The notes under the pieces were generated by a model. That model had not been told where the DNA came from. It did no database searches and was given only the letters and a program-made list of their open reading frames with translations. A DNA stretch of 59,327 nt from a virus (taxonomy: Duplodnaviria > Caudoviricetes): positions 1 through 59,327 of IMG/VR virus record IMGVR_UViG_3300027741_000070; one strand, written 5' to 3'. Of the stretch, positions 22,387 through 52,327 are shown one piece after another. Both the position numbers and the translations under genes were made by a program. How positions within the stretch are numbered: position 1 is the first letter of the stretch; each line of letters opens with the position of its first letter.

Positions 22387-22749
22387 TTAAGCGCGCGTAT
22401 AACCACGCGGGTCTTGCACGACTGCTTCAACCGAATCATCATTGATGAGACGGAATTCACGACCGTGGATTTTAAAGCGGGTGCCTGAATATGCGCGGGT
22501 AAGGACAAAATCGCCTTCCTTACAATACGGACCCGTTGGGAAACGGCCTTGGTCCAAATAACAATCCGGACCCATCTTTACAACAAACAACACAACCGAT
22601 GAATGCTCTTCGGTTTTAACTGTGGTGTCTGCTTTAAGAATGCCATTTTGAAACTTGTCTTCTACTTCCGGCAGGGCACAAAGAATCTTGTAACCCATAG
22701 GAGCGGGCAGTTGAGTCGCTTCTTGAACTTCCTGAACTTCGTCAGTCAT
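22387..22749 (-). CDS. groES: Phage-encoded co-chaperonin GroES
   Basis: PMGYKIL...VVKMGP...CKEGDFV...YSGTRFKIHGREFRLINDDSVEAVV Cpn10 signature. Confidence 0.85.
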   Translation of the reverse strand: MTDEVQEVQEATQLPAPMGYKILCALPEVEDKFQNGILKADTTVKTEEHSSVVLFVVKMGPDCYLDQGRFPTGPYCKEGDFVLTRAYSGTRFKIHGREFRLINDDSVEAVVQDPRGYTRA

Positions 22750-25336: not shown

Positions 25337-26842
25337 TTAATAGTACCCGCGTTTACGTTTAAATCCGCGAATTGGGTCTGGTTCGTCGGATTCTAACTTG
25401 ATAAACCCACCCTGCCGGAATCTTAATAATGCCTGAGTCGTCGAGTCGGTTAAGTCATCGTGGTCGCCATAGGGAAAAGCGGCCATTTCTTCAATCAATT
25501 CATGCGCCCAGCGTTTATCTGGGCACCATACTTTACCTGAAGCAAACAAATCTGATACAGCATTTAGGCGTACATTTTTATCATTACCGCGAGTCGGTGT
25601 AAATTCCTGAACAGGAATGCCCATTTGACGTAATTCATAAATCAAGGGTGCGCCAGCGGCTTTAGCTTCTACGATAAACGCGTCTGGTTGCCATTCTTGC
25701 CACATTTCGTGGGCGCGTTGTTTAAGCTCTGGAAATTCCATACGCTCTTTGTAGGCATCCAATAAAATAACGTTTGCGTCTTTTTGGTCTTCGTCTTTAT
25801 AGAAGACGCCCCACGTTGTACAGGCTGAATAGTCAGACCGTTCGTTTTTAGTAAAAGCCGTATCCCAAGATTGGATGACAAATTCACAAACCGGAGGATG
25901 GTCTCCCTCCCAAATTTTCCACCATTCGCGTTTAATGATTGCGCCTTCTTCGCCAGACGGTTTTTGTTGATACTGCGCTGACCATTTTGATAGCGGCAGT
26001 TCCGTGCGGAGCGCTTCAAGTTCTTCGATAGACCAGAACTCGGGCCATAAAGGCTTTCCAGATGGAAGAATAGCCGGTAATTCAATGACTTCCCATTCGC
26101 CAATTCGTTCATCCTCAATAGACGATTGAACAACACGACCCGTCAAGTCTTTTAAAGACCAGCGAGTCATAACAATTACAATAGCCCCGCCCGGCTGTAA
26201 GCGTTGTCGTGGACCAGATGTGTACCACTCATACACAGAATCAAAGATGCCGGGGTCAGAAGCGGCTAGTTTGGCTTCTTGTTCAGAATGCGGGTCATCA
26301 ATAATTAGTAGGTCAGCACCTTTACCAGTAACTGCACCCCCCACACCAATTGCAAAGTACTCTCCACTCTCATTAGTAGCCCAGCGACCAGCGGCTTTAG
26401 AGTCATGCCGTAAAGCCACATTAGGAAAAATTCCTTTATAGACTTCTGAATCAACAAGGTTTCTTACCTTTCGCCCAAAGCCAACCGCAAGCTCAGCCGT
26501 ATGCGACGTTTGAATAATTTTCTTTGACGGATAGCGACCAAGAAACCAAGCCGGGAGTAGGTATGAAGCAAACTCCGACTTCGTGTGTCGTGGCGGCATA
26601 TTGATAATAAGTCTCTTAAGCTCACCCTTAGCCACCCTCTCAAATTTCTCTGCCATCAGTTTGTGATGCCTGCCAGAGATAAAACCCGGCCACATCTTGT
26701 AAACAAACTGCATGAAAGAATTTTGACAGCGCTCACGTTCAGCCGCATGGGTGTACTTCTCCAGCATAGCAAACATCTTCTCCTGCTCATCGGGCGGGAG
26801 CAATGAAATGTGGTTAACAATCTCACTAATGTCATCCATCAC
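25337..26842 (-). CDS. terL: Terminase large subunit
   Basis: Walker A-like NMPPRHTKS, Walker B LLIIDDP, VMTRW, and nuclease motifs SWDTAF and HDDLTDSTTQA. Confidence 0.95.
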   Translation of the reverse strand: MMDDISEIVNHISLLPPDEQEKMFAMLEKYTHAAERERCQNSFMQFVYKMWPGFISGRHHKLMAEKFERVAKGELKRLIINMPPRHTKSEFASYLLPAWFLGRYPSKKIIQTSHTAELAVGFGRKVRNLVDSEVYKGIFPNVALRHDSKAAGRWATNESGEYFAIGVGGAVTGKGADLLIIDDPHSEQEAKLAASDPGIFDSVYEWYTSGPRQRLQPGGAIVIVMTRWSLKDLTGRVVQSSIEDERIGEWEVIELPAILPSGKPLWPEFWSIEELEALRTELPLSKWSAQYQQKPSGEEGAIIKREWWKIWEGDHPPVCEFVIQSWDTAFTKNERSDYSACTTWGVFYKDEDQKDANVILLDAYKERMEFPELKQRAHEMWQEWQPDAFIVEAKAAGAPLIYELRQMGIPVQEFTPTRGNDKNVRLNAVSDLFASGKVWCPDKRWAHELIEEMAAFPYGDHDDLTDSTTQALLRFRQGGFIKLESDEPDPIRGFKRKRGYY

Positions 26843-27063
26843 TCAATCTTCCTAAAGTTAATCCCAATAGGTCTAACAGTCCTCTGCTTGCCATCCAACT
26901 TCCTCAGCGCCCCAAGTTTTACCAACCTGTTGATTATTCTATGAATATTGCCTCTTCCCTTAGTGCCAAGCACATACATCACCTCATCAATAGAAGGTGA
27001 GTAGCCAAACTTCTTCCACCACTCGTCAATGACAAGGAAGACTTCTTTCTGACGCGGGGTCAT
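26839..27063 (-). CDS. LexA-type winged-helix DNA-binding protein (no peptidase domain)
   Basis: MTPRQKEVF..I..WW...GYSPSIDEV...NIHRIINRLVKLG resembles the LexA N-terminal domain. Confidence 0.78.
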   Translation of the reverse strand: MTPRQKEVFLVIDEWWKKFGYSPSIDEVMYVLGTKGRGNIHRIINRLVKLGALRKLDGKQRTVRPIGINFRKIE

Positions 27064-27335: not shown

Positions 27336-27995
27336 CTACGCTACAGCGCCCTCCCCACCTACGGTGGGGTCATCCATATCATGAATCTGCGCGGCATCTT
27401 CGATGCTCACATGAGATTCTTCAACAGAATCAACGGCTTGGCTTGTTATCTCTGATAACAAACTGTCAGCATCACCATCGGTTTGTTCTGGCTGAATGTC
27501 TATAACATTCAATGACTTAAGTTTATCCAGTATCTGGCTCCTGATTTGTTCACTAGAGTGAACAACAGTCTGTTCTCGGCGCTCTGTAAATGCGGCGACC
27601 TCAGTTACTTTGCCAAGTAACTCCAAGGCTCTGATTCGACTATTCGGCGGATTCTCTTCGTTTGTTGCTTCCATTTGTAATCTTTCGATTACTAATGACC
27701 TGATTTGTTGGGGCGAATGCCACTCCCTAACCTCGTTTAAGGTACTTAAACGGTTGATTTCGCTAGATATTCTTGGGTCTCGCTTAAGCATAGCGGCTTG
27801 GTCTCCTACGCGCTTCGGTGAAGCCGAAGTGTTGTAAGACTGTCTGTACGCCTCAGCAGCCGTGAGACCATTTGCTACTAACCTAGCAAAGCTTTTCTGC
27901 TTTGCAGTTAGTTCCCGCGCGGCAGAACCCAGCAGCAGATTCTCTGCTGGCATTTGCTTCAGTGCTTCGGATATATCTTTTCTCGAAAGTTTCAT
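27336..27995 (-). CDS. terS: Terminase small subunit
   Basis: LTAKQKSFARLVANG..AAEAYRQSY HTH and RIRALELLGK motif; upstream of terL. Confidence 0.85.
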   Translation of the reverse strand: MKLSRKDISEALKQMPAENLLLGSAARELTAKQKSFARLVANGLTAAEAYRQSYNTSASPKRVGDQAAMLKRDPRISSEINRLSTLNEVREWHSPQQIRSLVIERLQMEATNEENPPNSRIRALELLGKVTEVAAFTERREQTVVHSSEQIRSQILDKLKSLNVIDIQPEQTDGDADSLLSEITSQAVDSVEESHVSIEDAAQIHDMDDPTVGGEGAVA

Positions 27996-28284
27996 TTTCT
28001 AATCTGGGGAACATAATGGGAACAAACGATATTGGCGATTATATTCGAGTTTCCCTGTGTGTGCGAGTCAGTGTGTGACCTACGGTTCCTGCGCTGACCG
28101 CTTCGCGTTTCCCCCGCGCTGAATCCTACGGATTCCGAGTTAATCCGTTGATTCCATTATGTTTTTGATTATCTGGCCGATTATCCGTTTGTTACGCCTA
28201 GTGTCTTTGACACTAGATGATTATCTGTTTCCCTGTACATACGCTCGCGCCACTTCGTTGACACGCGCCTACACATCACGCTTA

Positions 28285-28315
28285 AAGACAAATACAGTCT
28301 TTATGTATTTGTCTT
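28285..28315. promoter_or_regulatory. Perfect 12-bp inverted repeat in the divergent control region
   Basis: AAGACAAATACA-N7-TGTATTTGTCTT. Confidence 0.5.
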
Positions 28316-28511
28316 TTCCTGACCGCACATGATGTACGCATCATGATGCTTGTCATGACCTACGCGCATTATGCCTACGCATGAGGCTAAGTCGCTGATT
28401 CCATTGCGTTTTCTCAATCTTTTCGAACTTTTTGAACCGGCGACCGGTCAGAGTCTGCGTCGATTGCGAAATTTTGCTCTCGACTCCGGCCAAGTCTCTC
28501 CGGATGCAAAA

Positions 28512-28847
28512 TGTGAGATGCGGGTAAATGTGTATTACGGCCTCGATGCCTGTCGGGAGACACGCTGAAAGGGCAGGGCGGACGCTCTGACGTGACCGAA
28601 TATGCCGAATATCCCTGACCGCTTTGACCTGCACTTGAACGGTGCAGCGAGTGCGAATCCGTAAGGTACGGCAGGATGGTTTGTCCTGCAAAGCGTGTAC
28701 CTTCAAGCATACTGGCAACGGGGCGCTATATCCGCTGCAAGCATAGGCACACAGATGTCTAGGTAAGGGTAAGGATACCCTGCCCAAATAGCAGTATTCA
28801 GCAGGCAACGCTCTTTTGGAGCGTTGCATGATGCATACCGCATCACA
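28512..28847 (+). ncRNA. Large multi-stem structured leader RNA of unknown family
   Basis: Nested helices: GATGCGG/CCGCATC, TGCCTG/CAGGCA, GGGCAGGG/CCCTGCCC, TATGC/GCATA, CTGCAC/GTGCAG, AAGGTACG/TGTACCTT, GCAGGATG/TGTCCTGC, GCAACGCTC/GAGCGTTGC. Confidence 0.65.
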
Positions 28848-28862
28848 ACCGTGGAGACCACC

Positions 28863-30023
28863 ATGACTGAAATGACTATTGTTCAAGTATTGAACACGCT
28901 TACATTCAAGGAACTCGCTGCAATGCACAAGCATTACGGCGGCGGGTTCGACTTCTTTCGTGGCCCTTCGGGCCATCCCAATTGGGGCAAGTCTGCTGCA
29001 ATCGAGTACCTGATGCAGCGCCACACCCCACAATCCCTTCGGGATGTCGCTTTCACCGTAACGCAAAACACCCAACAACCCAAACCTGAACAAACGGAGA
29101 CCAAAACCATGACCACACCCGACCAACAAGCTGCTGTTCAGAATTTGCTGAATACCTTCGGTATCAGCACCGGCCCCGACGAGGCCCGCATCCGTGAGAT
29201 TGTGGCCGAAGCTATCGCTTCGGTTGAGCCGACCAAGGTTGAGTATCACGTCAAGCGCTTCGACGGTTCCACCGTCAAGGTTGACGGCCACGTCCGGCCT
29301 GAATTCAAAACCATCCTCCGTGACGCCGCGGCTGGCGTCAACATTCTGTTGGTCGGTCCTGCCGGTTGCGGTAAGACTCACATTGCAAAGCAATGTGCCG
29401 AGGCGCTTGACCGCCCCTTTGCATCGGTGTCCTGCACTGCCGGTATGAGCGAGGCGGCTTTCAAGGGCCGTTTGTTGCCGGTTGATAATGGTAATTTCCG
29501 CTACGTTCAATCGGACTTTGTCCGACTGTATCGGAATGGCGGCGTGTTTCTCATCGACGAAGCTGACGCTCTCGACGGTAACGTCGCTCTGACTCTTAAC
29601 AATGCTCTCGCTGGTAACGGATTCAATAATGACCTCATTATTGACGGCGACACTTTTGTGCCACGCCATCCAGACTTCGTCTGCATCGCCGCCGCCAACA
29701 CGTTCGGCACTGGTGCTAACGCTGTCTACGCTGGCCGTGAGCGCTTGGATGAGGCTTTTCTTGACCGATTCCGTGCTGGTCGAATCTCGCTGGATTATGA
29801 CCGTGAACTCGAACGGCAAGCCGTCGATGGCCGCTTGTTGAAGTGGGGCTGGGATGTTCGCAAGAACATCACCGACAACCGTATCCACAAGGTGTTGTCT
29901 ACTCGCTTCCTCATGGAGGCAACGAAGTTGCTAACCGTCGGCGCTACTCATAGCGAAATGGTTGACCGCTTCTTTGCCGACTGGAAGTCGGATGACCGCC
30001 AACGCGTTGACGTTGCCGTCTAA
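28863..30023 (+). CDS. CobS/MoxR-family AAA+ ATPase
   Basis: Walker A GPAGCGKT, Walker B FLIDEAD, HPDFVCIAAANT, RLDEAFLDRF; GGAG RBS before ATG 28863. Confidence 0.9.
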   Translation: MTEMTIVQVLNTLTFKELAAMHKHYGGGFDFFRGPSGHPNWGKSAAIEYLMQRHTPQSLRDVAFTVTQNTQQPKPEQTETKTMTTPDQQAAVQNLLNTFGISTGPDEARIREIVAEAIASVEPTKVEYHVKRFDGSTVKVDGHVRPEFKTILRDAAAGVNILLVGPAGCGKTHIAKQCAEALDRPFASVSCTAGMSEAAFKGRLLPVDNGNFRYVQSDFVRLYRNGGVFLIDEADALDGNVALTLNNALAGNGFNNDLIIDGDTFVPRHPDFVCIAAANTFGTGANAVYAGRERLDEAFLDRFRAGRISLDYDRELERQAVDGRLLKWGWDVRKNITDNRIHKVLSTRFLMEATKLLTVGATHSEMVDRFFADWKSDDRQRVDVAV

Positions 30024-30047: not shown

Positions 30048-30944
30048 ATGCAACATCGCTTCATTAAGACTGGCAAGGGCCGCTCGCTGGCCCGCTTCAG
30101 CACCGCCATGTTTGACTCGGTGCAAGACGGGCTGCGTTTCTACGAAACGATTTGTGCCGACGAGTCGCTGGCCCAGCGCGACATGATTGTTGGATTCAAC
30201 AACAAACACACGGCTGACTGGAGCGGCTGCGAATCGGCTGACCAGTTTGCCCACCGTGTCCGTCAGGGTTGGGTGGCTGGCGCTGACCGCCTGATGAAGC
30301 TGCCGGTTGGCGACATCTCGCCGGTGTCAATCAAGCGCCGCCGCTATCAGGGCGACCAAGGTGATGACCTCGATATCCATCGAGTGAATCGCGGCGAACT
30401 CGACACCGCTTGGACATATCACAAGCGTGATGTCAAGCGTGGCGCTGGCCGTCAGGTGACGGTTGTCTGCAACCTCGCAGCAAGCTGGCGCGTTACGGCA
30501 GAACAACTGTTCTGGCGTGGCGCTTCGGCCCTGCGTCTAGCCGAGGCTCTCGAATCGGCTGGCTACTCGGTGCGGATTGTTGCAGCGATGGCAGCGACTG
30601 GCATCGACAGTAAAGAAAATGTCGATAACGCCTACCTGTTCGAGGTTAAGTCTCTCGAACAACCGATTGATGTGGCTAATCTCGCGGCCATCCTTTGCCT
30701 GCCGGCTTACTTCCGAATCATTGGATTTGGCACGAAAGTATGGTCCTGCAACACCAACGACCTGACCGCAGACTACAGTCTCGGCCACACCTCGGATGAC
30801 CTCATCCCGAAGGCGATGGAAGAGTGGTATCCGAACGAGTACTACATCTCGCAACCTCGCACGCTTCTTTCAGAAGAAGCCGCCGCCGAATGGATTGCCC
30901 AGTCGGTTGATACCATCCAGAACCCGCAACAGCTTGCCGCGTAA
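30048..30944 (+). CDS. vWA-like partner of the MoxR/CobS ATPase
   Basis: GDDLDIHR...VTVVCNLAASW...LAEALESAGYSVRI; adjacent to the AAA+ gene as in MoxR-vWA pairs. Confidence 0.7.
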   Translation: MQHRFIKTGKGRSLARFSTAMFDSVQDGLRFYETICADESLAQRDMIVGFNNKHTADWSGCESADQFAHRVRQGWVAGADRLMKLPVGDISPVSIKRRRYQGDQGDDLDIHRVNRGELDTAWTYHKRDVKRGAGRQVTVVCNLAASWRVTAEQLFWRGASALRLAEALESAGYSVRIVAAMAATGIDSKENVDNAYLFEVKSLEQPIDVANLAAILCLPAYFRIIGFGTKVWSCNTNDLTADYSLGHTSDDLIPKAMEEWYPNEYYISQPRTLLSEEAAAEWIAQSVDTIQNPQQLAA

Positions 30945-31734: not shown

Positions 31735-31801
31735 CGGTTTGTCGAAACGGCCTGCCTTGTGTGGGCCGTCTTACGGTAGCACCGTAACTGATGAGACACC
31801 G
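31735..31801 (+). ncRNA. Hammerhead ribozyme, type II
   Basis: Order: TGTC, GAAA, stem III CGGCCTGC/GTGGGCCG, TC, stem I TTACGGT/ACCGTAA, CTGATGA, GACA. Predicted cleavage after GTC at C31770. Confidence 0.9.
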
Positions 31802-31826
31802 CCGGTTCGCTACCGGCTTTTCTTTT
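31801..31826 (+). terminator. Rho-independent terminator-like hairpin directly after the hammerhead
   Basis: GCCGGT-TCGCT-ACCGGC followed by TTTTCTTTT. Confidence 0.7.
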
Positions 31827-33639: not shown

Positions 33640-33666
33640 GCGGCCTTCGGGCCGCTTAATTTTTTT
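33640..33666 (+). terminator. C(UUCG)G hairpin, terminator-like
   Basis: GCGGCC-TTCG-GGCCGC followed by TTAATTTTTTT. Confidence 0.6.
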
Positions 33667-42460: not shown

Positions 42461-42549
42461 GCCAGAGTGGTGAAATCGGTAGACACAGCAGACTTAAAAT
42501 CTGCCGACCATAACAGGTTGTGCCGGTTCGATTCCGGCCTCTGGCACCA
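42461..42549 (+). tRNA. tRNA-Leu (anticodon TAA)
   Basis: Acceptor GCCAGAG/CTCTGGC plus ACCA; D loop GGTAGAC; anticodon arm GCAGA-CTTAAAA-TCTGC; long variable arm; GGTTCGATTCC. Confidence 0.95.
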
Positions 42550-44541: not shown

Positions 44542-44708
44542 CATACATTTGGTTCAATCTTTTGATGCTTCACTCAGGGCATCTATACTGGATAGATTCT
44601 TTTGAGTCGCTTTACGAATGCCAACAGATGGAAGTTTGGTATGAGGGTCAGCAGCAATACAAAACTGACAAGTTTTTTTGTCCGTTTGTTTGGGTCGATA
44701 GAACTTAA
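44538..44708 (+). CDS. Hypothetical protein (start MTYIWF)
   Basis: ATGA overlap; last gene before the convergent late arm. Confidence 0.5.
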   Translation: MTYIWFNLLMLHSGHLYWIDSFESLYECQQMEVWYEGQQQYKTDKFFCPFVWVDRT

Positions 44709-47700
44709 TCTCTAAGTTTCTTTACTTGCTCGTTGAGGCGCTTCATCTGAGCGATGATGCGGTCATTGATGCGCTTGATTTGTTCAGGATTGGCCCCGCG
44801 CTCAGTTAGGCGCTTTTTCTGTTGGCGCAACTCTTTGATGTTGTTCTCAATAGAGTTAGAGATTGGAACAAGTTTTGCCTCGGGGTTTTCTTTGATGTAC
44901 TCAAACACCGGCTCATGATTCTTGCGCCGACCTTTGATTTCATTCTCATGTTCGTTTAGGCGCGTGATGTTGTCGTAGTACCTCTGCATTTGTGCGGCGT
45001 TAGATTCTGCATTGCCATAGAACCTGCCAACCAATGGAATCTTGTACGGAGCCAACTCTTCTCCAGTAGAAATGCTGGAGACTGCTTGTGCGCCCTTGCC
45101 AATTTCACGCGCAACACCACCACCAATTTGTCCAATTACATAGTCAATCTGGTCTGGAGTCCAGTTAATACCACCCGGCTTGTACTTTGTGCCGCCGCTT
45201 GCTTTGTTTAAAAACTCTGCCATCCACTTGCTCCAAGCAGTAGCAGTGTCCTTTGTTCTAAGGTAGCCCGGCGTCGGGTCAGTAGCATTCAATTCTGGTT
45301 TGTAAATCGGGCGACCAAATGAATCTTTGTTTTCTGCAAGAGCAGCAAACGGGTCAAGCGCCGTAGGTGCAACAGTTTGTAAAGACCAGCCGCCACCACC
45401 AATCGGGTTAAACGTATCAATCACAGAACCAAAAATGCCTGTTATGTGTTTGCCGGTATCACGGAATCCACTGAGACACCATTCCATTATGTTGCGCGAA
45501 ACATTTGGAATGACGTTGTATCCCAACGGCATCGGAATAGAAATGTATTTCTTCCCGCCAACCGGGATAACAATGTTACGTTCCTTCAAGAATTCTGGCG
45601 GTTCATCTTCATCGAATCCTGCCGCAGCCAAGGCTAGAGCCTGAACAATGCCCAACAACAATCCGCCATAAATAATCTTCTTCGCCATTGGACCCCGGAG
45701 GGTTTCCAAGATGCGCGCGTTGCCCTGAACAGAGGCGTTAAAGAACGCATACAAAGCGCCCATCTGGGTAGCAATGTTGCCCTTGCGGTTGAAGTTGACG
45801 GTGATGTTCTTGGCAACACTGGCCGCCTGCTGCTTGGACAAACCTTTGTCCAGCGCGGCTTTATAAGCCGTAAGGCGAACAGCGTTTTCCATCGAGGTGT
45901 TGTAATCAGATAAGAAGTCACCTAAAGCCCGGAGCTTCGGCATAACTCCAGTGCCATCAATGCTTTTGATTTCAGTTTTGATAGCGTCAGCCCGCTCTTC
46001 AGTGCTGCTATACATACTGCGATAGCCAGTTTGACCGCCTTCCTCTTGGAGTTCTTGCCACAGCTTTGCCCATTGCGAAGCAGGCATGGTCCCCTTGTCT
46101 CGCTCTGCTCTTGAGACCTTCCAAATTGCCCCGAGCGCACCATTCAAGTTTTCCACGCTCATGACATCTTTAACTTTGTCTGCGATAGGCGTAGTAGACA
46201 AGTTAAGGGTTGCGCCTTCGATGTCGCGCAAGAAGTTAACAATACCGAATATAGGGTTGTACTGAGTATTCACCCGAGCAAACCAACGGCTAATCCCGCC
46301 CATGATGGACATGACGCGGCCAAGTTCGTCTGCATCAAGATTCTTCAATGCCGATACCATCCGTTTTGCGCGCGGGTCGTTGCTGTTAAACAACAAATAG
46401 TGATTGCGCCCGTTAATTCTGGTAGCAAGAATGTTGGGGCTGTTTAAAACATACGGGTCAATTTTGTTTGTTACAAGCCCGGTCTTATGGTCAATGACTT
46501 TTCTTGTGGGCTGCTGGAAGATGTTCTGAATATCGTTAGGGCTGATACCAAGATTTAACAGTTCATTCTGAACCTTGGACACATCTTTGATAGCCTCTGG
46601 GTCGATTGGCAACCAGAAGTCTTTGTTGGGGTTCTGAACGGCAAGACCATACACAGACTGTGCCACGCGATTCTTTTCGGCACGGATGATGGCGCGTTCA
46701 CGCTGCATGACAATGTTGGCAAAGATTTGAACAACACCGCGATTTGAACCCATTGCTCGCTTCGAGAAGTCACCTCGAATGTTGAAGCCTTGACCAACGC
46801 CATACCCAGATGTAGTTACATAGTCCGCGTCTTCGCGGAACAGCGGAACGTAGTGCGGGTAAGTCTGCTCCCACGAAGCAATTGTTTGCGGTAGCTCAAG
46901 ACCAGAATCAACAAGAACCTGACGAGTGTCACGGTTGATGTCATCCACCCGCTTTGCAATCGAATCTAATAAGCGACGACGAGCGGGCGGTATTGCATTC
47001 AAATAGTTACGAGCGGTTTGTGTCGCAATGCCAGAACCAGCATCAGGCATTGCCGGGTTAATGCTGGCAATTTGTTTGTTGCGTTCTTCTGCATGACGGT
47101 TGTGCAAGAACTCTTCAAACTCAGGGATGCTGATGTTGTGCTTTGAAAGGTCGAGCAGCAGCGGGCGAAGCTCAGTCCGCAGGAAACGCTCCGTCTGTTG
47201 TGCTGTGCGCCCGTGATAAAGCTCTTCTTGAAGATATGGATTCCATTTGTCAAGAATTTTTCCAGCAGCTTTGGTGATTTCCTGAACGACGCGTTTAACG
47301 TCAACCATCTTGTCCTGTATTTGGAAGATGGCATCGTCAGTCTTGCTATCTGTCGGCTCAGTCCAAGTGGGAAGAGTTGCCGGTTGGCCCAAAACGTTTT
47401 GCGGCAAAGCAAATTGAATTTTGTCAGAGCCAAGACCAAACTCACCATTGTTGCCAAATGCAGCTTTGATTTGTTTTGGACTAAAGACAGCTACGTTCTT
47501 GTAGAACTGGCCCTTCGTAGCTTCGGTAATAAAGAAGCCATCGAAGCCAAGACGCTTAATTGCATCAATCACTTCGCCCGTTTCAAATACAGGCCATGCC
47601 CCTGACATCAGCCTTTGGCGCAAGCCTTCCTTGCTGTACTTTTTGGGTTCAATGATTGACTCGGGCGCAACGTAGAACTCTTCTTCCGTCCCGCCGCCTT

Positions 47701-50700
47701 CACTCGGCACCTTAACGCTATAGTAAGGATGAAGGATAACCTTCCTAATATTCTGGAAGATTTTAATGTTAGCGCCCTTCATTACCTCGTCAACCAATCT
47801 GTTGACTTGCTCTTCGTTTTCGTAATCAAAAACGTTTTTTGGGTTCAGATATACCGGGTATACAACACCCTTGTTTCTATCTTCGCCAAGCTCTTCCGCT
47901 TTGTAATTGATAAAGGTATCTGCGGGAATCGGGCTGGGCGAAAAGAAGATTGCGTCAGCCGTTCCAGTCTTAAACGCTTCAATGTTTCTTGTGCTGCCGT
48001 GGTAGAACAGGCGTGGGCGACCCTCTTTGTCAACAAGCTGTCCGTCACCAAACCAGCGCCAGAAATTTCTGATGCCATCTTTGGTTGGATAGATTTGTGA
48101 GCCATTGGCATTCAATGACGGCTTGCGCTTGCCTTGGGCAAGAACGGTCATCGGCAGGGCATGACGCGGAAATCCGTTTTGACGAACAGACTTGACAAGC
48201 TCTGGCGTGACGCTGAAGCCAAGTTGTTGGCTTGTTTCGTTATCCGTTGCCCATTTGGTGGCATCACCAACAACTGGAAGCTCAACAACCTCTACCTGAC
48301 TGCCATACTTTTTGAGCAACGAGTTAAGTTTGTTGGGCAAAATTTTGCCGTAGAAGTTTTCAAACCCTTCTTTTGTACTGCCGCCATCACTTTTTTCGGG
48401 GAAACGATAGTGCGCTTGAGCCGGATTAATAAAGGCTACTTTGTCATAGCCGCCGCTAACGGCCATAGCAATAATTCTTTTTGCGGCAAGTTCAACCCAT
48501 TTGCCAGTATCTTGAACATAAGGCCCAGCCGGAACTTTTTGGACTGGCAACTCTTCTATTTTTTTATAAAGCTCTGTAATTTTATTTCTTAATTCTGAAC
48601 GCATATCTGCTTTTTCTTCAAAATCAGGAACTTTTTTACGAGCGTATTCCGCTTCAATTAAATAATCATTTATCCTGCCTTCTTCATATTGAAGTTGTTC
48701 AATTTGTAAATTGATTTTTTCTTTTTCTTTTTCTATTCTTTGGGCTTCTTCTTTTTCATCGCGTAAAACAAAACCAACATCTCGACCGCTCTGCGCCCAA
48801 TCCGATTGCACTTCTTCAACAAACAAAACATTGTTTCCAAGAACATCTTGGCGGTCATTTGTACGCAAGTGATACAACACATTGGCGTCAGGAAAGTGAG
48901 AATTGTAATAATTAAAAGCAATGTTTTTGGCTGCTGGCCCAGACAAAACAACTGGAATCTCTCGATAGTTGTCGCCGCCATCTAAAGTCCATTCTGAAAA
49001 TTTTGAATTTCCATTAGCGCCAAGACTTTCATTGGCTTCGTATGCAAGCTCTTGTTTGATGTCTTCAATGTCTTCAAACGAATCTATTAATTCGTTATTA
49101 ACGTCATACAAATCAAAGGGATAATAATTACGGTCAAACTTGTAAGCTATAAAAGAAAAGTCTTGCCCGCCAATGTTAACCACAAATTCATAAGCACCTT
49201 CAACCGGTTTGCCATTTGGGTCAACCTGCTCTGGCATTTGGTCCGTTACATCTATAACACCAATTTCAGGGCGACCGGCAGATTCATAAACCACATCACG
49301 CGGGTTATCAAAGGCTTGCAGGTAATCAACAATTTGTTTCTGCGAGACTTTGTTTTTGCCTTGGCTCATCAACCATTCATCTAGACCAGTCCAGAAGTAT
49401 TCGCCTTCTTTGCCCCCGGCTTGATTTGCGTTTGCGTTGAACCATTGCCGCCACACACCAGCCGATTGATTCTCAAGTTTGTTGGGTGCATTAACGACAA
49501 GCCGGTTGAGCGGCGAATACAGGAAGTCTTCCGCCATCACCCGTTGCGCTTCGGGCGAAAGGTTGTTGTAGTCCTCTAACGATAGAGCGTGCTTTACGCC
49601 TTCGGCTTTCTGCTCTGCGCGGGCGCCCTTCAGTTCGCCCTTCAATGCGCGTTGGAATACCTTCTCGGTGCTATCAAAGCCTTGCCCGCGCAGAGTCGAG
49701 CCCATCGACTCAAGGAACATCTTCATGCGGTTTAACAATCCTTGGATAGCGCCAGTAGGCTTGTAATCTCCGCCCATCCAGTCGCCAAACGCATCAGCGA
49801 TGGCTTCTTCGATTTGCTCTTCTTCGCTAAGATGACCATACCGCTCTTCGGTGCGGTACTTCTTAATCCATTCGCTCTTTGCCTTGCGAGTGAGGATGTC
49901 CCACTCTTTGTCGCTAAACATCCCAAGCTCACGCAAGGCGTGGACGGTTTCATGACCAAAGGTCGCCAGTACACCGCGCGTGTTATCTAAAGAAGCATGG
50001 ATGACCCGGTTAAGGTAGTAGCCATCCACCGGAGTCATCTGTCCATTGACCATGCTGGTCAATTTGTTGGAGATATTCAGCCCAATGTTTTGCAGACCCA
50101 TCTGGTCTAGAGTACCGCGCAGACGCGACGTAACCTCCTGCACCTTCTGCTGCATCTCAGGTGTGGCTTGGGGCTCAAACGTTGTTTCTGCACCTTCTTC
50201 AGTCGGAGTTTCTTCTGGCGCGAATAAGTCTTTCTGCGCCTTTCTCAGACCCTCACGATGCGGGGCTTCATCTTGATAGATTGCTTGCTGCTGTTCAAGC
50301 GAAGCGTTTTCAGCAATAAACTTTTCCGCTTCCTCGCGGGTTGCAAACGGGACTACTGTCTTCGCCGTCTTGCCCGGACGGTACTGACGAACTTCATATC
50401 CGCTTTCCTCGCCCTTCTTTTCGTTGATTGGCTTAACTTCTGTCGGGGTCGCAATCTTTTCCCGCTCTTGATTTAATTGTTCAATTTGTTGCTGTGCTTC
50501 GGCAATTTTTGCCGCAGCATTGTCATGCTCTTCAGAAAGTTTTTCATCGCTCATATCACTAGCGATGGCGATGTTCAGGTTTTCACTTACTGCCGAAATG
50601 ATTTCGTTCTGAGACTCAATCTTTTTGTCAATCTCACCAGTCATACGCTCAACACGCGCATCCATTTGGGTCTTGATGTTTTCTGCTTCTTCGGGAGTAG

Positions 50701-52327
50701 CGGCCTTGCGGGTAACGTTGATGCCGGGGTTTGTTACTTCATAGCCTTCGGCAGTAGTTTCCCCGGTCTGGCGGGTAACAGGCGAAGCATAAAAGTACGG
50801 CGTCGTCCCATCTAAGTGAGGAGCAATGCGGTCCTCTTCTTTGATGAAGCTAAATTGTGGAGCTTCTTCAGTTCCGGTGTTAACAATCTCGCCGCGACGG
50901 ATAAGCTCATTGGCTACAGCAGTTGCATCACCCTCGTGTGCAACATCATCGCCCGTTTGTTTGTTGATGTAATCCAAACCAAACGGCTTGTCTTTTTCAG
51001 CCTTTGACAAGAAGTTGTTTGCTTCAGCAGAAACCGTTTCTCCGGGAAGATTGCTGCCAAGCGGGTGTGCAATTTCAGCAACATCTGGGATGGCTTGCTC
51101 TTTTTCTTTTTCTGCCTGCGCCCGCTCTTCCATGACCTTTTGTGCGCGTTGGGCCTGAAGTGCGTTGATACCACCAGCACCACCACCCATAAGGGCGCCC
51201 ATAGCACCAGCCATACCAGCGGCAGCACCAACGCCTTGCATCGGGTCTTGTTGACCCGGCATGAAAATGTTTCCAAGGTACTGACCGCCGCCTTCTTCAC
51301 CCGCCTCAGAAAAGCCTTCACCAAAAAAACTTTTGGCAGTTTGTTTGCCAAATTGAGATGCGCTCTTGCCTAAAGTCTTGCCTGCCGCCCCAGCAACAAG
51401 TTGCTCTAAAGAGTGACCGCCGGGAACAGCGTATTGCGCTACAAGACTTAAAGCGGTGGCCGGAAGAAGAGAGCCACTTGCTGCGCCTTCAGCAACAATT
51501 CTGCGAGCATCCTCTGGGCTTGCACCTTCTTTGATGGCAGCTTGATACTCTGGAGTTTCGGCAAGTTTGCCCCCATCCATCTCCATGACGGAGTTGAAGT
51601 TTTGATTGGCTACGCTTGCACCTTGCATAGTAGCGCCACCAACAACCGTCTTGATTGTTTCTGGACCACCAAGGAACTTCATGCCTTTCTCGCCAAGAAT
51701 CTTGGCTGCGCGCTCTCCAGCGGCTTCGGCCAGTTTGGGTGCTACAGCTTTGCCAACTTTGGCAAGGCCGGTTCCCAAAAGCCTACCGCCAACAATTGAA
51801 GACAAGGCTTCCGGCCCATAGCTTGCTAAAAGTTCTGGGGTTGTGAGGGTTTCTCTGGCGGCAATCCCGGCCTCATCTAAAAGAGATGTTGACTCTTCAA
51901 GTTTCTTGGCAAGATTTTTTTGTGCTGCCTTGGATTGCTCTGAATACAAGTCTTTTTGAACATCTCGCAGAAACTTGGCATTTCCTCTCGAAATACCAAG
52001 TTTTCCAATGTCTTCAGAATATTCGGGGGCAACACCTTTCAACAAACTGGCTATTCCTTTATCGGCGCCAGTCAATCTTCCAAAAGTATCGGTTGGAGTA
52101 AATTCTGCAAATGTTTCAACAAGACTAGGAATAATTCCAGCCGTACCCACGGCAACGTCACGCAGACCGGCACCGAACGTGTATGGCTTTTTAGGAATTT
52201 CAGGCGCGGGCAGATTGATGTTTTTTGATTTAGCAATCTGACTGACGTAATCATCCACCAGATTAACTGGTACGTCGTCAGGAATACTAACCGGACCTAA
52301 TCCGGGAACATCAATATTTACAGGCAT
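44705..52327 (-). CDS. Large polyvalent (probably virion-ejected) protein: zincin-like metallopeptidase, ADP-ribosyltransferase-like and LPD38-like domains
   Basis: GHETVH (HExxH); FWRWFGD..LVDKEGRP..FYHGS...VYPVYL...GFDG...VAVFSPKQIK (ART-PolyVal-like); NITVNFNRKG...LYAFFNASVQG...IPMPLGY...ENKDSFGRPI (LPD38-like). Confidence 0.82.
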   Translation of the reverse strand: MPVNIDVPGLGPVSIPDDVPVNLVDDYVSQIAKSKNINLPAPEIPKKPYTFGAGLRDVAVGTAGIIPSLVETFAEFTPTDTFGRLTGADKGIASLLKGVAPEYSEDIGKLGISRGNAKFLRDVQKDLYSEQSKAAQKNLAKKLEESTSLLDEAGIAARETLTTPELLASYGPEALSSIVGGRLLGTGLAKVGKAVAPKLAEAAGERAAKILGEKGMKFLGGPETIKTVVGGATMQGASVANQNFNSVMEMDGGKLAETPEYQAAIKEGASPEDARRIVAEGAASGSLLPATALSLVAQYAVPGGHSLEQLVAGAAGKTLGKSASQFGKQTAKSFFGEGFSEAGEEGGGQYLGNIFMPGQQDPMQGVGAAAGMAGAMGALMGGGAGGINALQAQRAQKVMEERAQAEKEKEQAIPDVAEIAHPLGSNLPGETVSAEANNFLSKAEKDKPFGLDYINKQTGDDVAHEGDATAVANELIRRGEIVNTGTEEAPQFSFIKEEDRIAPHLDGTTPYFYASPVTRQTGETTAEGYEVTNPGINVTRKAATPEEAENIKTQMDARVERMTGEIDKKIESQNEIISAVSENLNIAIASDMSDEKLSEEHDNAAAKIAEAQQQIEQLNQEREKIATPTEVKPINEKKGEESGYEVRQYRPGKTAKTVVPFATREEAEKFIAENASLEQQQAIYQDEAPHREGLRKAQKDLFAPEETPTEEGAETTFEPQATPEMQQKVQEVTSRLRGTLDQMGLQNIGLNISNKLTSMVNGQMTPVDGYYLNRVIHASLDNTRGVLATFGHETVHALRELGMFSDKEWDILTRKAKSEWIKKYRTEERYGHLSEEEQIEEAIADAFGDWMGGDYKPTGAIQGLLNRMKMFLESMGSTLRGQGFDSTEKVFQRALKGELKGARAEQKAEGVKHALSLEDYNNLSPEAQRVMAEDFLYSPLNRLVVNAPNKLENQSAGVWRQWFNANANQAGGKEGEYFWTGLDEWLMSQGKNKVSQKQIVDYLQAFDNPRDVVYESAGRPEIGVIDVTDQMPEQVDPNGKPVEGAYEFVVNIGGQDFSFIAYKFDRNYYPFDLYDVNNELIDSFEDIEDIKQELAYEANESLGANGNSKFSEWTLDGGDNYREIPVVLSGPAAKNIAFNYYNSHFPDANVLYHLRTNDRQDVLGNNVLFVEEVQSDWAQSGRDVGFVLRDEKEEAQRIEKEKEKINLQIEQLQYEEGRINDYLIEAEYARKKVPDFEEKADMRSELRNKITELYKKIEELPVQKVPAGPYVQDTGKWVELAAKRIIAMAVSGGYDKVAFINPAQAHYRFPEKSDGGSTKEGFENFYGKILPNKLNSLLKKYGSQVEVVELPVVGDATKWATDNETSQQLGFSVTPELVKSVRQNGFPRHALPMTVLAQGKRKPSLNANGSQIYPTKDGIRNFWRWFGDGQLVDKEGRPRLFYHGSTRNIEAFKTGTADAIFFSPSPIPADTFINYKAEELGEDRNKGVVYPVYLNPKNVFDYENEEQVNRLVDEVMKGANIKIFQNIRKVILHPYYSVKVPSEGGGTEEEFYVAPESIIEPKKYSKEGLRQRLMSGAWPVFETGEVIDAIKRLGFDGFFITEATKGQFYKNVAVFSPKQIKAAFGNNGEFGLGSDKIQFALPQNVLGQPATLPTWTEPTDSKTDDAIFQIQDKMVDVKRVVQEITKAAGKILDKWNPYLQEELYHGRTAQQTERFLRTELRPLLLDLSKHNISIPEFEEFLHNRHAEERNKQIASINPAMPDAGSGIATQTARNYLNAIPPARRRLLDSIAKRVDDINRDTRQVLVDSGLELPQTIASWEQTYPHYVPLFREDADYVTTSGYGVGQGFNIRGDFSKRAMGSNRGVVQIFANIVMQRERAIIRAEKNRVAQSVYGLAVQNPNKDFWLPIDPEAIKDVSKVQNELLNLGISPNDIQNIFQQPTRKVIDHKTGLVTNKIDPYVLNSPNILATRINGRNHYLLFNSNDPRAKRMVSALKNLDADELGRVMSIMGGISRWFARVNTQYNPIFGIVNFLRDIEGATLNLSTTPIADKVKDVMSVENLNGALGAIWKVSRAERDKGTMPASQWAKLWQELQEEGGQTGYRSMYSSTEERADAIKTEIKSIDGTGVMPKLRALGDFLSDYNTSMENAVRLTAYKAALDKGLSKQQAASVAKNITVNFNRKGNIATQMGALYAFFNASVQGNARILETLRGPMAKKIIYGGLLLGIVQALALAAAGFDEDEPPEFLKERNIVIPVGGKKYISIPMPLGYNVIPNVSRNIMEWCLSGFRDTGKHITGIFGSVIDTFNPIGGGGWSLQTVAPTALDPFAALAENKDSFGRPIYKPELNATDPTPGYLRTKDTATAWSKWMAEFLNKASGGTKYKPGGINWTPDQIDYVIGQIGGGVAREIGKGAQAVSSISTGEELAPYKIPLVGRFYGNAESNAAQMQRYYDNITRLNEHENEIKGRRKNHEPVFEYIKENPEAKLVPISNSIENNIKELRQQKKRLTERGANPEQIKRINDRIIAQMKRLNEQVKKLRD

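Follow-up and report, generated by a model that had tools for sequence, protein, structure and literature searches.

A probable member of an uncatalogued leader RNA family at the head of the rightward early operon of an uncultured freshwater phage

The plus strand of an uncultured freshwater phage very probably carries, at positions 28455-28743, a copy of an uncatalogued family of cis-leader RNAs, placed at the head of the rightward early operon. The window, i.e. the whole stretch of DNA analysed here, comprises 59,327 nt and is the record of an uncultured virus, of the linear class and with a completeness given as 96%. Judging from sequence comparison, this is a new RNA family that is common to dozens of uncultured, mainly freshwater phages and has no Rfam counterpart; covariation supporting it comes from 57 distinct sequences, 40 collected by a kernel pattern and 17 by a 5'-domain pattern. 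The leader appears to be built in two parts, a junction domain of helices P2 and P3 closed by helix P1, and a kernel hairpin whose stem is free to vary between fixed ..UGAC and CGAG.. flanks. The window's leader would extend this plan by a pair of hairpins on its 5' side and by a more elaborate 3' hairpin, after which come an exchangeable 3' module and the ribosome-binding site (RBS). In a first-pass annotation the region had been described as giving a large structured RNA without coding function, read from the plus strand and preceding the first RBS of the rightward operon; the covariation, strand and ORF tests given below bear this out.

The leader lies in a gap between two gene blocks of opposite orientation. 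From 285 to 27995 all genes are on the minus strand and form the structural and packaging block, which ends with the portal, TerL, a 74-aa LexA-type winged-helix protein and TerS. The terS gene (27336-27995, minus strand; phrog_51 terminase small subunit, E 2e-11) opens the leftward late block and forms the left border of an 865-nt gap (27996-28862), inside which the leader is found. On the other side, the first gene 3' of the leader encodes a 386-aa CobS-like AAA+ ATPase of the MoxR/CbbQ type (28863-30023, plus strand; AAA_5, 1.2e-19; phrog_249, 4.5e-59), followed by the second early gene, which encodes a DUF7192 protein (30048-30944, plus strand; PF23822, 8e-33). A GGAG RBS and the ATG at 28863 can be read from the sequence at 28852-28865 (plus strand), and AACCGUGGAGACC..AUG is retained at this site in the alignment of the relatives L033, L097 and L102. 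The promoter scan of the window gave no sigma-70-like plus-strand promoter in 27900-29000, and no plus-strand terminator-like site is present in 28400-28862, so that none separates the leader RNA from its start codon. Among the window ORFs scanned, none was seen to encode a phage RNA polymerase. The nearest named relatives by TerL, at 53-60% identity, are 023Pt_psg01, DSL-LC04 and the pelagiphages HTVC027P and HTVC023P.

Several other features of the record deserve mention in their own right. A perfect 13-bp hairpin at 28284-28316 (AAAGACAAATACA / TGTATTTGTCTTT), one arm of which terminates in a T-run, keeps its pairing through three double changes in L033, and may serve as a bidirectional terminator or as a divider that separates the leftward from the rightward unit. 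GATTATC occurs three times in 28166-28225, reading on the minus strand as GATAAT -10-like boxes, and two promoter-like sites near this stretch are directed toward terS. A 25-nt direct repeat (28141-28165 / 28388-28412) is spaced by 247 nt. The LexA-type winged-helix gene (26839-27063), located between terS and terL, has counterparts of 33-41% identity in many family members. The structural block includes a GroES-like co-chaperonin (22387-22749), and a 2540-aa polyvalent protein (44705-52327) contains ADP-ribosyltransferase (ART-PolyVal, 9e-15) and LPD38 (7e-47) domains. The sole Rfam match of the whole window at gathering scores is a tRNA at 42461-42546, a tRNA-Leu (UAA) by ARAGORN.

The extent of the element was defined from close homologues. 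The search with the CobS-like protein brought 28 viral and 62 metagenome loci, among which only L032 and L034 (98.1% over 856 nt) and L033 (75.6% over 672 nt) have a gap like that of the window; nhmmer and blastn searches of the gap against the first 28 CobS loci gave no match. Three further relatives, L097, L101 and L102, were found via two exact words from the conserved part. Their TerS and TerL are 84-99% identical to those of the window and their CobS-like gene only about 40% identical, and at window position 28743 their leader passes into another, longer 3' module. In run X13, a DNA contig omits 28743-28840 and carries 259 other letters instead. The joint (28743/28840) is a mosaic one; the first codons and the ~20 nt preceding the ATG are shared again. 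Since the 3' hundred nucleotides are replaced in relatives up to this joint at 28743, the conserved core, which comparison of the sequences suggests to be a 5' unit of local helices, can be placed at about 28455-28743. The window and L033 are 86-88% identical over 28496-28645 as against 74.9% over the two adjacent downstream genes, which argues for purifying selection on the RNA region; over 28746-28845 their identity is 30-31%.

In the window's own group, RNAalifold predicts 83 pairs from five sequences. Among the five close homologues 96.1% of the pair cells are paired, compared with 36-50% when the partners are slid by 1-3 columns, and 14 pairs have changed on both sides, compared with 5.6 +/- 1.6 in shuffles (0/500). 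The bounds first assigned to the RNA, 28512-28847, have to be moved at both ends, as the structured conserved part begins earlier, with two hairpins, and ends at about 28743. The first of these, hairpin Pa (28459-28484, plus strand; GUCGA...UCGAC), is an RNAalifold helix in columns 20-45 of alignment A3, with two double-changed pairs (GCCGA/UCGGC in L102) and a G-C to G-U change that is compatible with the plus strand only. The second, hairpin Pb (28485-28504, plus strand; UCCGG/CCGGA), is paired in 100% of the cells and double-changed in two of its five pairs (CUCGG/CCGAG in L102). Masking of the RBS by the loop at 28494 was considered and dropped, because by eye the loop varies while the RBS is constant.

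The predicted 5' multi-helix domain follows at 28522-28614 (plus strand, as are all parts of the fold), taken from the consensus fold of five homologues. It comprises P1 (28522-26/28610-14), a helix at 28530-40/28596-605 with a UU/AA to AC/GU double change, a helix at 28541-43/28570-72, a hairpin with a GGGA loop (28548-54/28559-65), and a hairpin with a GGAC loop (28574-79/28584-89) in which one pair has changed on both sides. The kernel (28615-28660) reads CUGAC-CGCUUUGAC-[P5 stem 28629-35/28641-47, loop UGAAC]-CGAGUGCGA and is supported by covariation of P5 across the family. At 28663-28703 the helix 28663-70/28696-703 encloses the hairpin 28671-89, probably as an elaborated equivalent of the family's GCGA-loop hairpin P6. 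The terminal hairpin of the core (28715-28738; GCAACGG/CCGCUGC) was read by eye from alignment A2, where an A-C mismatch of the window is an A-U pair in L097 and a G-C pair in L033. Beyond the mosaic joint lies the variable 3' leader module (28744-28843), which includes the hairpin 28805-27, with 10 pairs in the window.

This picture retains the local part of the fold drawn in the first-pass annotation and discards its overall closure. On direct check of the letters, all of the complementary segments listed there are present: 7/7 Watson-Crick pairs for 28517-23/28838-44, 6/6 for 28547-52/28802-07, 8/8 for 28571-78/28778-85 and 5/5 for 28601-05/28741-45. A fifth long-range helix, 28580-89/28752-60, is weak, with the first five of nine positions pairing (two as G-U) and the remaining ones unpaired, and two of the helices overlap others by 2-3 nt. 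In the alignment of six sequences, three of the local helices proposed there are well supported. Hairpin 28629-47 (7 pairs) is 100% paired with three pairs changed on both sides; helix 28663-70/28696-703 (8/8 including one G-U) is 100%/92% paired with five such pairs; and hairpin 28671-89 (8 pairs) is 92% paired with two. The RNAalifold consensus had missed the second of these, which was found on testing the earlier model. The suggested pseudoknot between 28561-66 and 28692-97 is 6/6 in the window; four of its pairs are invariant, and the other two pairs are broken in one and three of the six sequences. The single closed multi-junction of ~340 nt, which depended on the long-range helices, is not supported: these helices show no double-changed pairs, only 57-83% of their cells are paired, and their 3' arms lie in the exchangeable module, where the homology underlying the alignment is doubtful. 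Three of them also compete with covarying local helices (28574-79/28584-89 and 28530-40/28596-605).

The predicted folding energy of the stretch first flagged is -130.5 kcal/mol as against -112.4 +/- 5.4 in shuffles (z -3.3; 0/100 shuffles as good). The reverse strand likewise folds better than its shuffles (z -3.9), so that energy alone cannot name the strand. No ORF of at least 25 codons is common to the four homologues checked, in keeping with the earlier remark that the stretch has no convincing ORF. In a lake metatranscriptome run, one 151-nt contig falls on 28601-28748 and two contigs fall on the CobS-like gene, which is a weak hint of transcription, given that DNA can occur in such libraries; the uncovered stretches of RNA run X24 are uninformative and were not used.

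The kernel is shared far beyond the window's group. Model R1, built on 28522-28658, gave weak matches just 5' of more distant CobS-like genes in L002, L037, L038 and L039, with the same flanks and an unrelated stem. The pattern CGCTTTGAC-N12-40-CGAGTGCG occurs in at least 119 stretches, most of which are estimated to be chance; those of its matches that have a hairpin between the two words constitute a coherent set, and a tighter pattern gave 64 stretches. Sixty-one loci with a stem of at least 4 bp reduce to 44 distinct sequences, with 27 distinct P5 stems. One candidate, L264, was dropped as a member because its flanks do not fit. Of 32 distinct P5 hairpins, 12 have the longer stem if G-U pairs are read on the plus strand, and one if they are read on the minus strand; in the plus-strand reading all but three of the 32 reach 6-7 bp, while in the minus-strand reading 12 shrink to 2-4 bp. 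The G-U pairs of P5 thus identify the plus strand as the folded one.

For recognition of the family, model R2 was built from 15 typical members, the window's group being left out. It matches all 44 family sources and, below E 0.1, none of 17 other CobS-relative loci. In the window it gives a single match, at 28574-28658 (38.9 bits, E 2.7e-6), and the window possesses what defines the family, i.e. a kernel ..UGAC-[covarying 6-7 bp stem]-CGAG.. after a P1-closed junction domain on the early-operon strand. In the 40 distinct rows of this kernel set (set 1), 92.5% of the cells are paired as against 27-51% with partners slid, 21 of 28 pairs have changed on both sides as against 14.7 +/- 1.4 in shuffles (0/500), and the covariation score is 0.359 as against 0.098. 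All six P5 pairs covary, with 99.6% of their cells paired, and P1, P2a, P2b and P3 covary in the wider family as well. The alignments A7 and A8 were fitted to the model structure, which favours pairing, and the invariance of the seven pairs of P4, the lower kernel stem, in set 1 is a product of the search pattern, in which they were fixed. Two other alignments were set aside: plain MAFFT with RNAalifold, applied to 29 members, gave a poor alignment of the upstream part, with P4/P5 alone recovered, and alignment A5, made with model R1, was too ragged for use.

R2 gave nothing in five whole related IMG/VR records except one chance-level match (E 0.26), and nothing in four TerL-related GenBank phage records, including two cultured pelagiphages; such empty results show little. 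In 185,579 species genomes the kernel pattern occurs in 11 stretches (12 matches), all with a stem of 0-3 bp in the gap, as expected by chance, and none with a kernel hairpin. Among 50,697 phage records, blastn found no match to the entire gap or to the leader of L261, a typical one.

An independent set (set 2) was gathered by the 5'-domain pattern CTAGTAGGCNCTG..CGAACGAGAT, without reference to the kernel. This gave 34 stretches, 26 of them new, and all 22 non-duplicate new loci match R2, four of them by the 5' domain only. In its 17 distinct rows 91% of the cells are paired, with double changes in five of six P1 pairs and in all six P5 pairs. The U-run of the kernel, by contrast with these helices, varies uncompensated (CGCUUAG, CGCUAAG, ..CUAUGAC), and the middle P4 pairs fail (7/13 and 4/14 cells unpaired), implying that P4 is an internal loop rather than a helix. 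As far as sequence comparison can tell, the fixed kernel is ..UGAC / stem / CGAG.., and CGCUUUG/CGAGUGCG is an internal loop with a short outer helix; tandem sheared G-A pairs might form within it. Helix P2a is flanked in 23 of 43 members by AGUA (5' strand) and GAA(C) (3' strand), which we take to be the sequence signature of the loop E (sarcin-ricin, bulged-G) motif; the motif would be a building block and does not define a family. The junction domain of most members combines this AGUA/GAA joint with a GGAU-loop hairpin. In the window's group an ordinary helix with a bulged A (28530-40/28596-605) takes the place of the loop-E-like joint, and there is an extra GNRA hairpin.

The genomic place of the leader is largely fixed. 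In 28 of 43 distinct members a terS homologue is encoded on the opposite strand, its start being 221-900 nt 5' of the kernel, and two more have only terL; the remaining members are on short contigs or have a differing layout. A CobS/CbbQ-like AAA+ gene lies 0.1-2.6 kb 3' of the kernel in 15 of the 22 loci with at least 3.5 kb downstream, and 11 of these 22 contain three further recurrent genes, whose annotated representatives are a phrog_6361 protein and two CobT-like halves, the second with a VWA domain. The first ORF 3' of the leader varies in size and sequence among members; in L204, L214, L341 and L350 its start is 46-60 nt from the kernel. The five other family records that were searched whole, all complete or nearly so, have one copy of the element each. 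Two of these records are classed as proviruses (L202 and L236), and one as having direct terminal repeats; in the latter the element is 12 kb away from the end. L223 and L270 have sigma-70-like promoters on the strand of the leader, 90-235 nt 5' of it.

Some members carry additional features near the leader. In seven of them (L330, L270, L208, L228, L298, L218 and L269) between one and four accessory hairpins accompany the kernel; their loop GUGCGA..AGAGC is constant, and an A-rich AAAYAAAUGSGG comes after each of them. The hairpins are confined to within 200 nt of the kernel, occur nowhere else in the loci and are absent from the window. They look like repeated protein or RNase sites. In five (L338, L237, L354, L201 and L270), the first early gene encodes an acidic protein of 58-69 aa (..EAWQ.L..TG..W.LQGW.GR..). 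An Rfam search of twelve family loci found only Betaproteobacteria-1 RNA (RF02932), located elsewhere in two of them (L223, 14523-14639, and L270, 9724-9847; 82 and 69 bits); it is absent from the window and hints at betaproteobacterial hosts.

Comparison with catalogued RNAs gave no counterpart. An Rfam 15 search of 27950-29000 with E up to 10 gave four chance-level matches of 15.9-18.2 bits as against cut-offs of 40-65, judged by gathering score over families including group I and II introns, RNase P, tmRNA, 6S, riboswitches, ribozymes, GOLLD, ROOL and HEARO. The earlier statement that the RNA could not be matched to group I/II introns, RNase P, tmRNA or common riboswitches is thus upheld. 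The L261 leader likewise gave four chance-level matches at E up to 10, and the cobalamin and AdoCbl models matched neither leader at that threshold. Tandem repeats of ~36-40 nt, of the kind found in type III antitoxins or pseudo-ToxI, were not detected, the repeat search of 27950-28900 giving scattered two-copy families only. A text search of the literature, which by its nature cannot find a sequence motif, turned up nothing on the leader RNA in the part of the texts that it covered.

The leader is best described by its likeness to the leader RNAs of phages and operons (nut, put, EAR and riboswitches), and it is a member of none of those tested. The lambda and P22 nut sites and the rrn antitermination leaders, with boxA and boxB, likewise stand at the start of an operon, early in the phage case, and nut likewise has a pyrimidine-rich conserved word beside a hairpin with a variable stem and a conserved loop. 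The boxA word of lambda nut is YGCUCUUUA-like; CGCUUUGA presumably resembles lambda boxA CGCUCUUA, as loops such as GACAA and GAGAA presumably resemble the boxB loops of P22 and lambda. The word CGCUUUGAC, abutting the kernel hairpin, resembles boxA with one deletion and one change, and varies in set 2. The boxB of nut is a short hairpin with a GNRA-like pentaloop. Kernel loops are of 5-10 nt with few exceptions (up to 23 nt), and many contain GACAA, GAGAA or GAUGA; the loop of the window is UGAAC. The leader family differs from nut, however, in being much larger, with a junction fold of 110-290 nt, and in having the word abut the hairpin instead of lying ~8 nt from it. It also has no Arg-rich N-like first gene: the window's first gene encodes the 386-aa AAA+ ATPase, and 26 small first ORFs of the family, from crude ORF calling, include no Arg-rich N-like protein (0-5 Arg+Lys in the first 30 residues, 3-14% overall). 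A point of likeness to nut is GYUCUUU after the GCGA-loop (GNRA) hairpin in many relatives; the window lacks it.

Two other kinds of known systems offer a more general likeness. The put-type antiterminator consists of two adjacent stem-loops that act directly on RNA polymerase. HK022 put and the Bacillus EAR RNA are also cis-acting folded RNAs in which the internal loops are fixed; they stand early in a long operon and are not bound to one gene product. The comparison, made for put by its description only, brought out no likeness in sequence or structure, and Rfam gives no match. Riboswitch aptamers in 5' UTRs, including the cobalamin class before true cobS/cobT, likewise form multi-helix junctions with conserved joints upstream of CobS/CobT-like genes. 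Unlike those genes, however, the phage 'CobS/CobT' are MoxR/VWA-type proteins without CobN, and no expression platform was seen in the leader.

How the leader might act is a matter of more tentative reasoning. Our best full explanation, which we hold at somewhat less than even weight, is that of a leader RNA family whose kernel serves for docking and controls the fate of the early transcript. The RNA would act in cis on its own transcript, with the fixed kernel flanks and the loop docking RNA polymerase or a host or phage factor. Such docking would set the fate of the early transcript, most likely by sustaining elongation through the long untranslated leader and on past the terminator-like sites at 31801-17 and 33640-55, through processive antitermination or Rho evasion. 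That elongation in particular is what is controlled seems possible, yet is doubtful when taken by itself. We favor it because the element accompanies the operon rather than one gene, the leader staying while the first gene varies; because a leader this long and untranslated would invite Rho; because the rightward operon of the window has two canonical terminator-like hairpins, a GC stem followed by a T-run, in the intergenic gaps at 31801-31817 and 33640-33655; and because of the boxA-like GYUCUUU after the GNRA hairpin in many relatives. Against it, terminator-like sites are not enriched in the window's operon (4 found, 7.8 expected), and in the two relatives examined (L270 and L223) the stretch from the leader to the CobS/CobT-like genes is free of them; the window has no GYUCUUU, and no N-like protein is encoded beside the leader. 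A multi-helix fold with fixed junctions would fit a riboswitch or a ribozyme equally. It is rather unlikely, though conceivable, that the leader represents a novel type of large phage RNA having its own activity, be it a factor-independent modifier of host RNA polymerase, a ligand-sensing switch by which the phage would gauge the state of its host ahead of committing to the early programme, or a new ribozyme.

We consider it unlikely that the leader is a riboswitch-like sensor, in which the junction domain and the kernel would form an aptamer for a small molecule, a tRNA or a protein and gate the translation or transcription of the early operon. In favor of this, the fold is complex, its stems varying freely around constant nucleotides in the junction and the loop, and it is placed in the 5' UTR beside the RBS, within 46-60 nt in four members. 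The long-range helices to the 3' module, 71-83% paired without covariation, could be an alternative conformer. On the other hand, no expression platform was seen, with no terminator-like site before the start codon and, by eye, no conserved pairing that masks the RBS; the first gene differs among members, and with E allowed up to 10 there is still no match to a riboswitch model of Rfam.

A processing or stability element, or a self-cleaving ribozyme, appears slightly less probable again. Here cutting of the leader would leave a protected 5' end on the mRNA and/or a stable trans-acting RNA, for example a decoy for a host defence or RNA-binding protein. The fixed internal loop between the two kernel helices would suit such a role, as would the resemblance of the one to four GUGCGA..AGAGC hairpins of the sub-clade to repeated protein or RNase sites, and ribozymes are common in phage intergenic regions, which is a point in its favor. 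Yet no known ribozyme model matches, no terminator is available to end a free-standing RNA, and in one RNA run the contig depth of the leader (2.1) is close to that of the gene (3-3.5), such depths being unreliable.

An element acting as DNA, with plus-strand hairpins in single-stranded DNA at a replication origin, a primase-loading site or a packaging site near terS, is very improbable: terS adjacency in 28 of 43 members, the ends of several relatives' contigs within a few hundred nucleotides of the region, the repeats and palindromes in the rest of the gap and the fact that G-T asymmetry names the folded strand and not the kind of nucleic acid speak for it, whereas the constant orientation with the early operon, the promoter-like sites upstream, a multi-helix junction with loop-E-like and GNRA-type features typical of RNA, the presence of the stretch in an RNA library, and the distance of 12 kb from the end in the record with direct terminal repeats speak against it.

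Beyond nut, put and borrowed bacterial riboswitches, few cis-acting RNAs of phages are known, and almost none from uncultured environmental phages. The kernel of the leader family described here is defined and its place in the genome fixed, and it has no relative in the catalogue. If the leader controls the first transcript after infection, as we tentatively propose, it would offer a new handle on how these phages start their programme, and it would also be a compact RNA part in which the flanks are fixed and the stem is free to vary.
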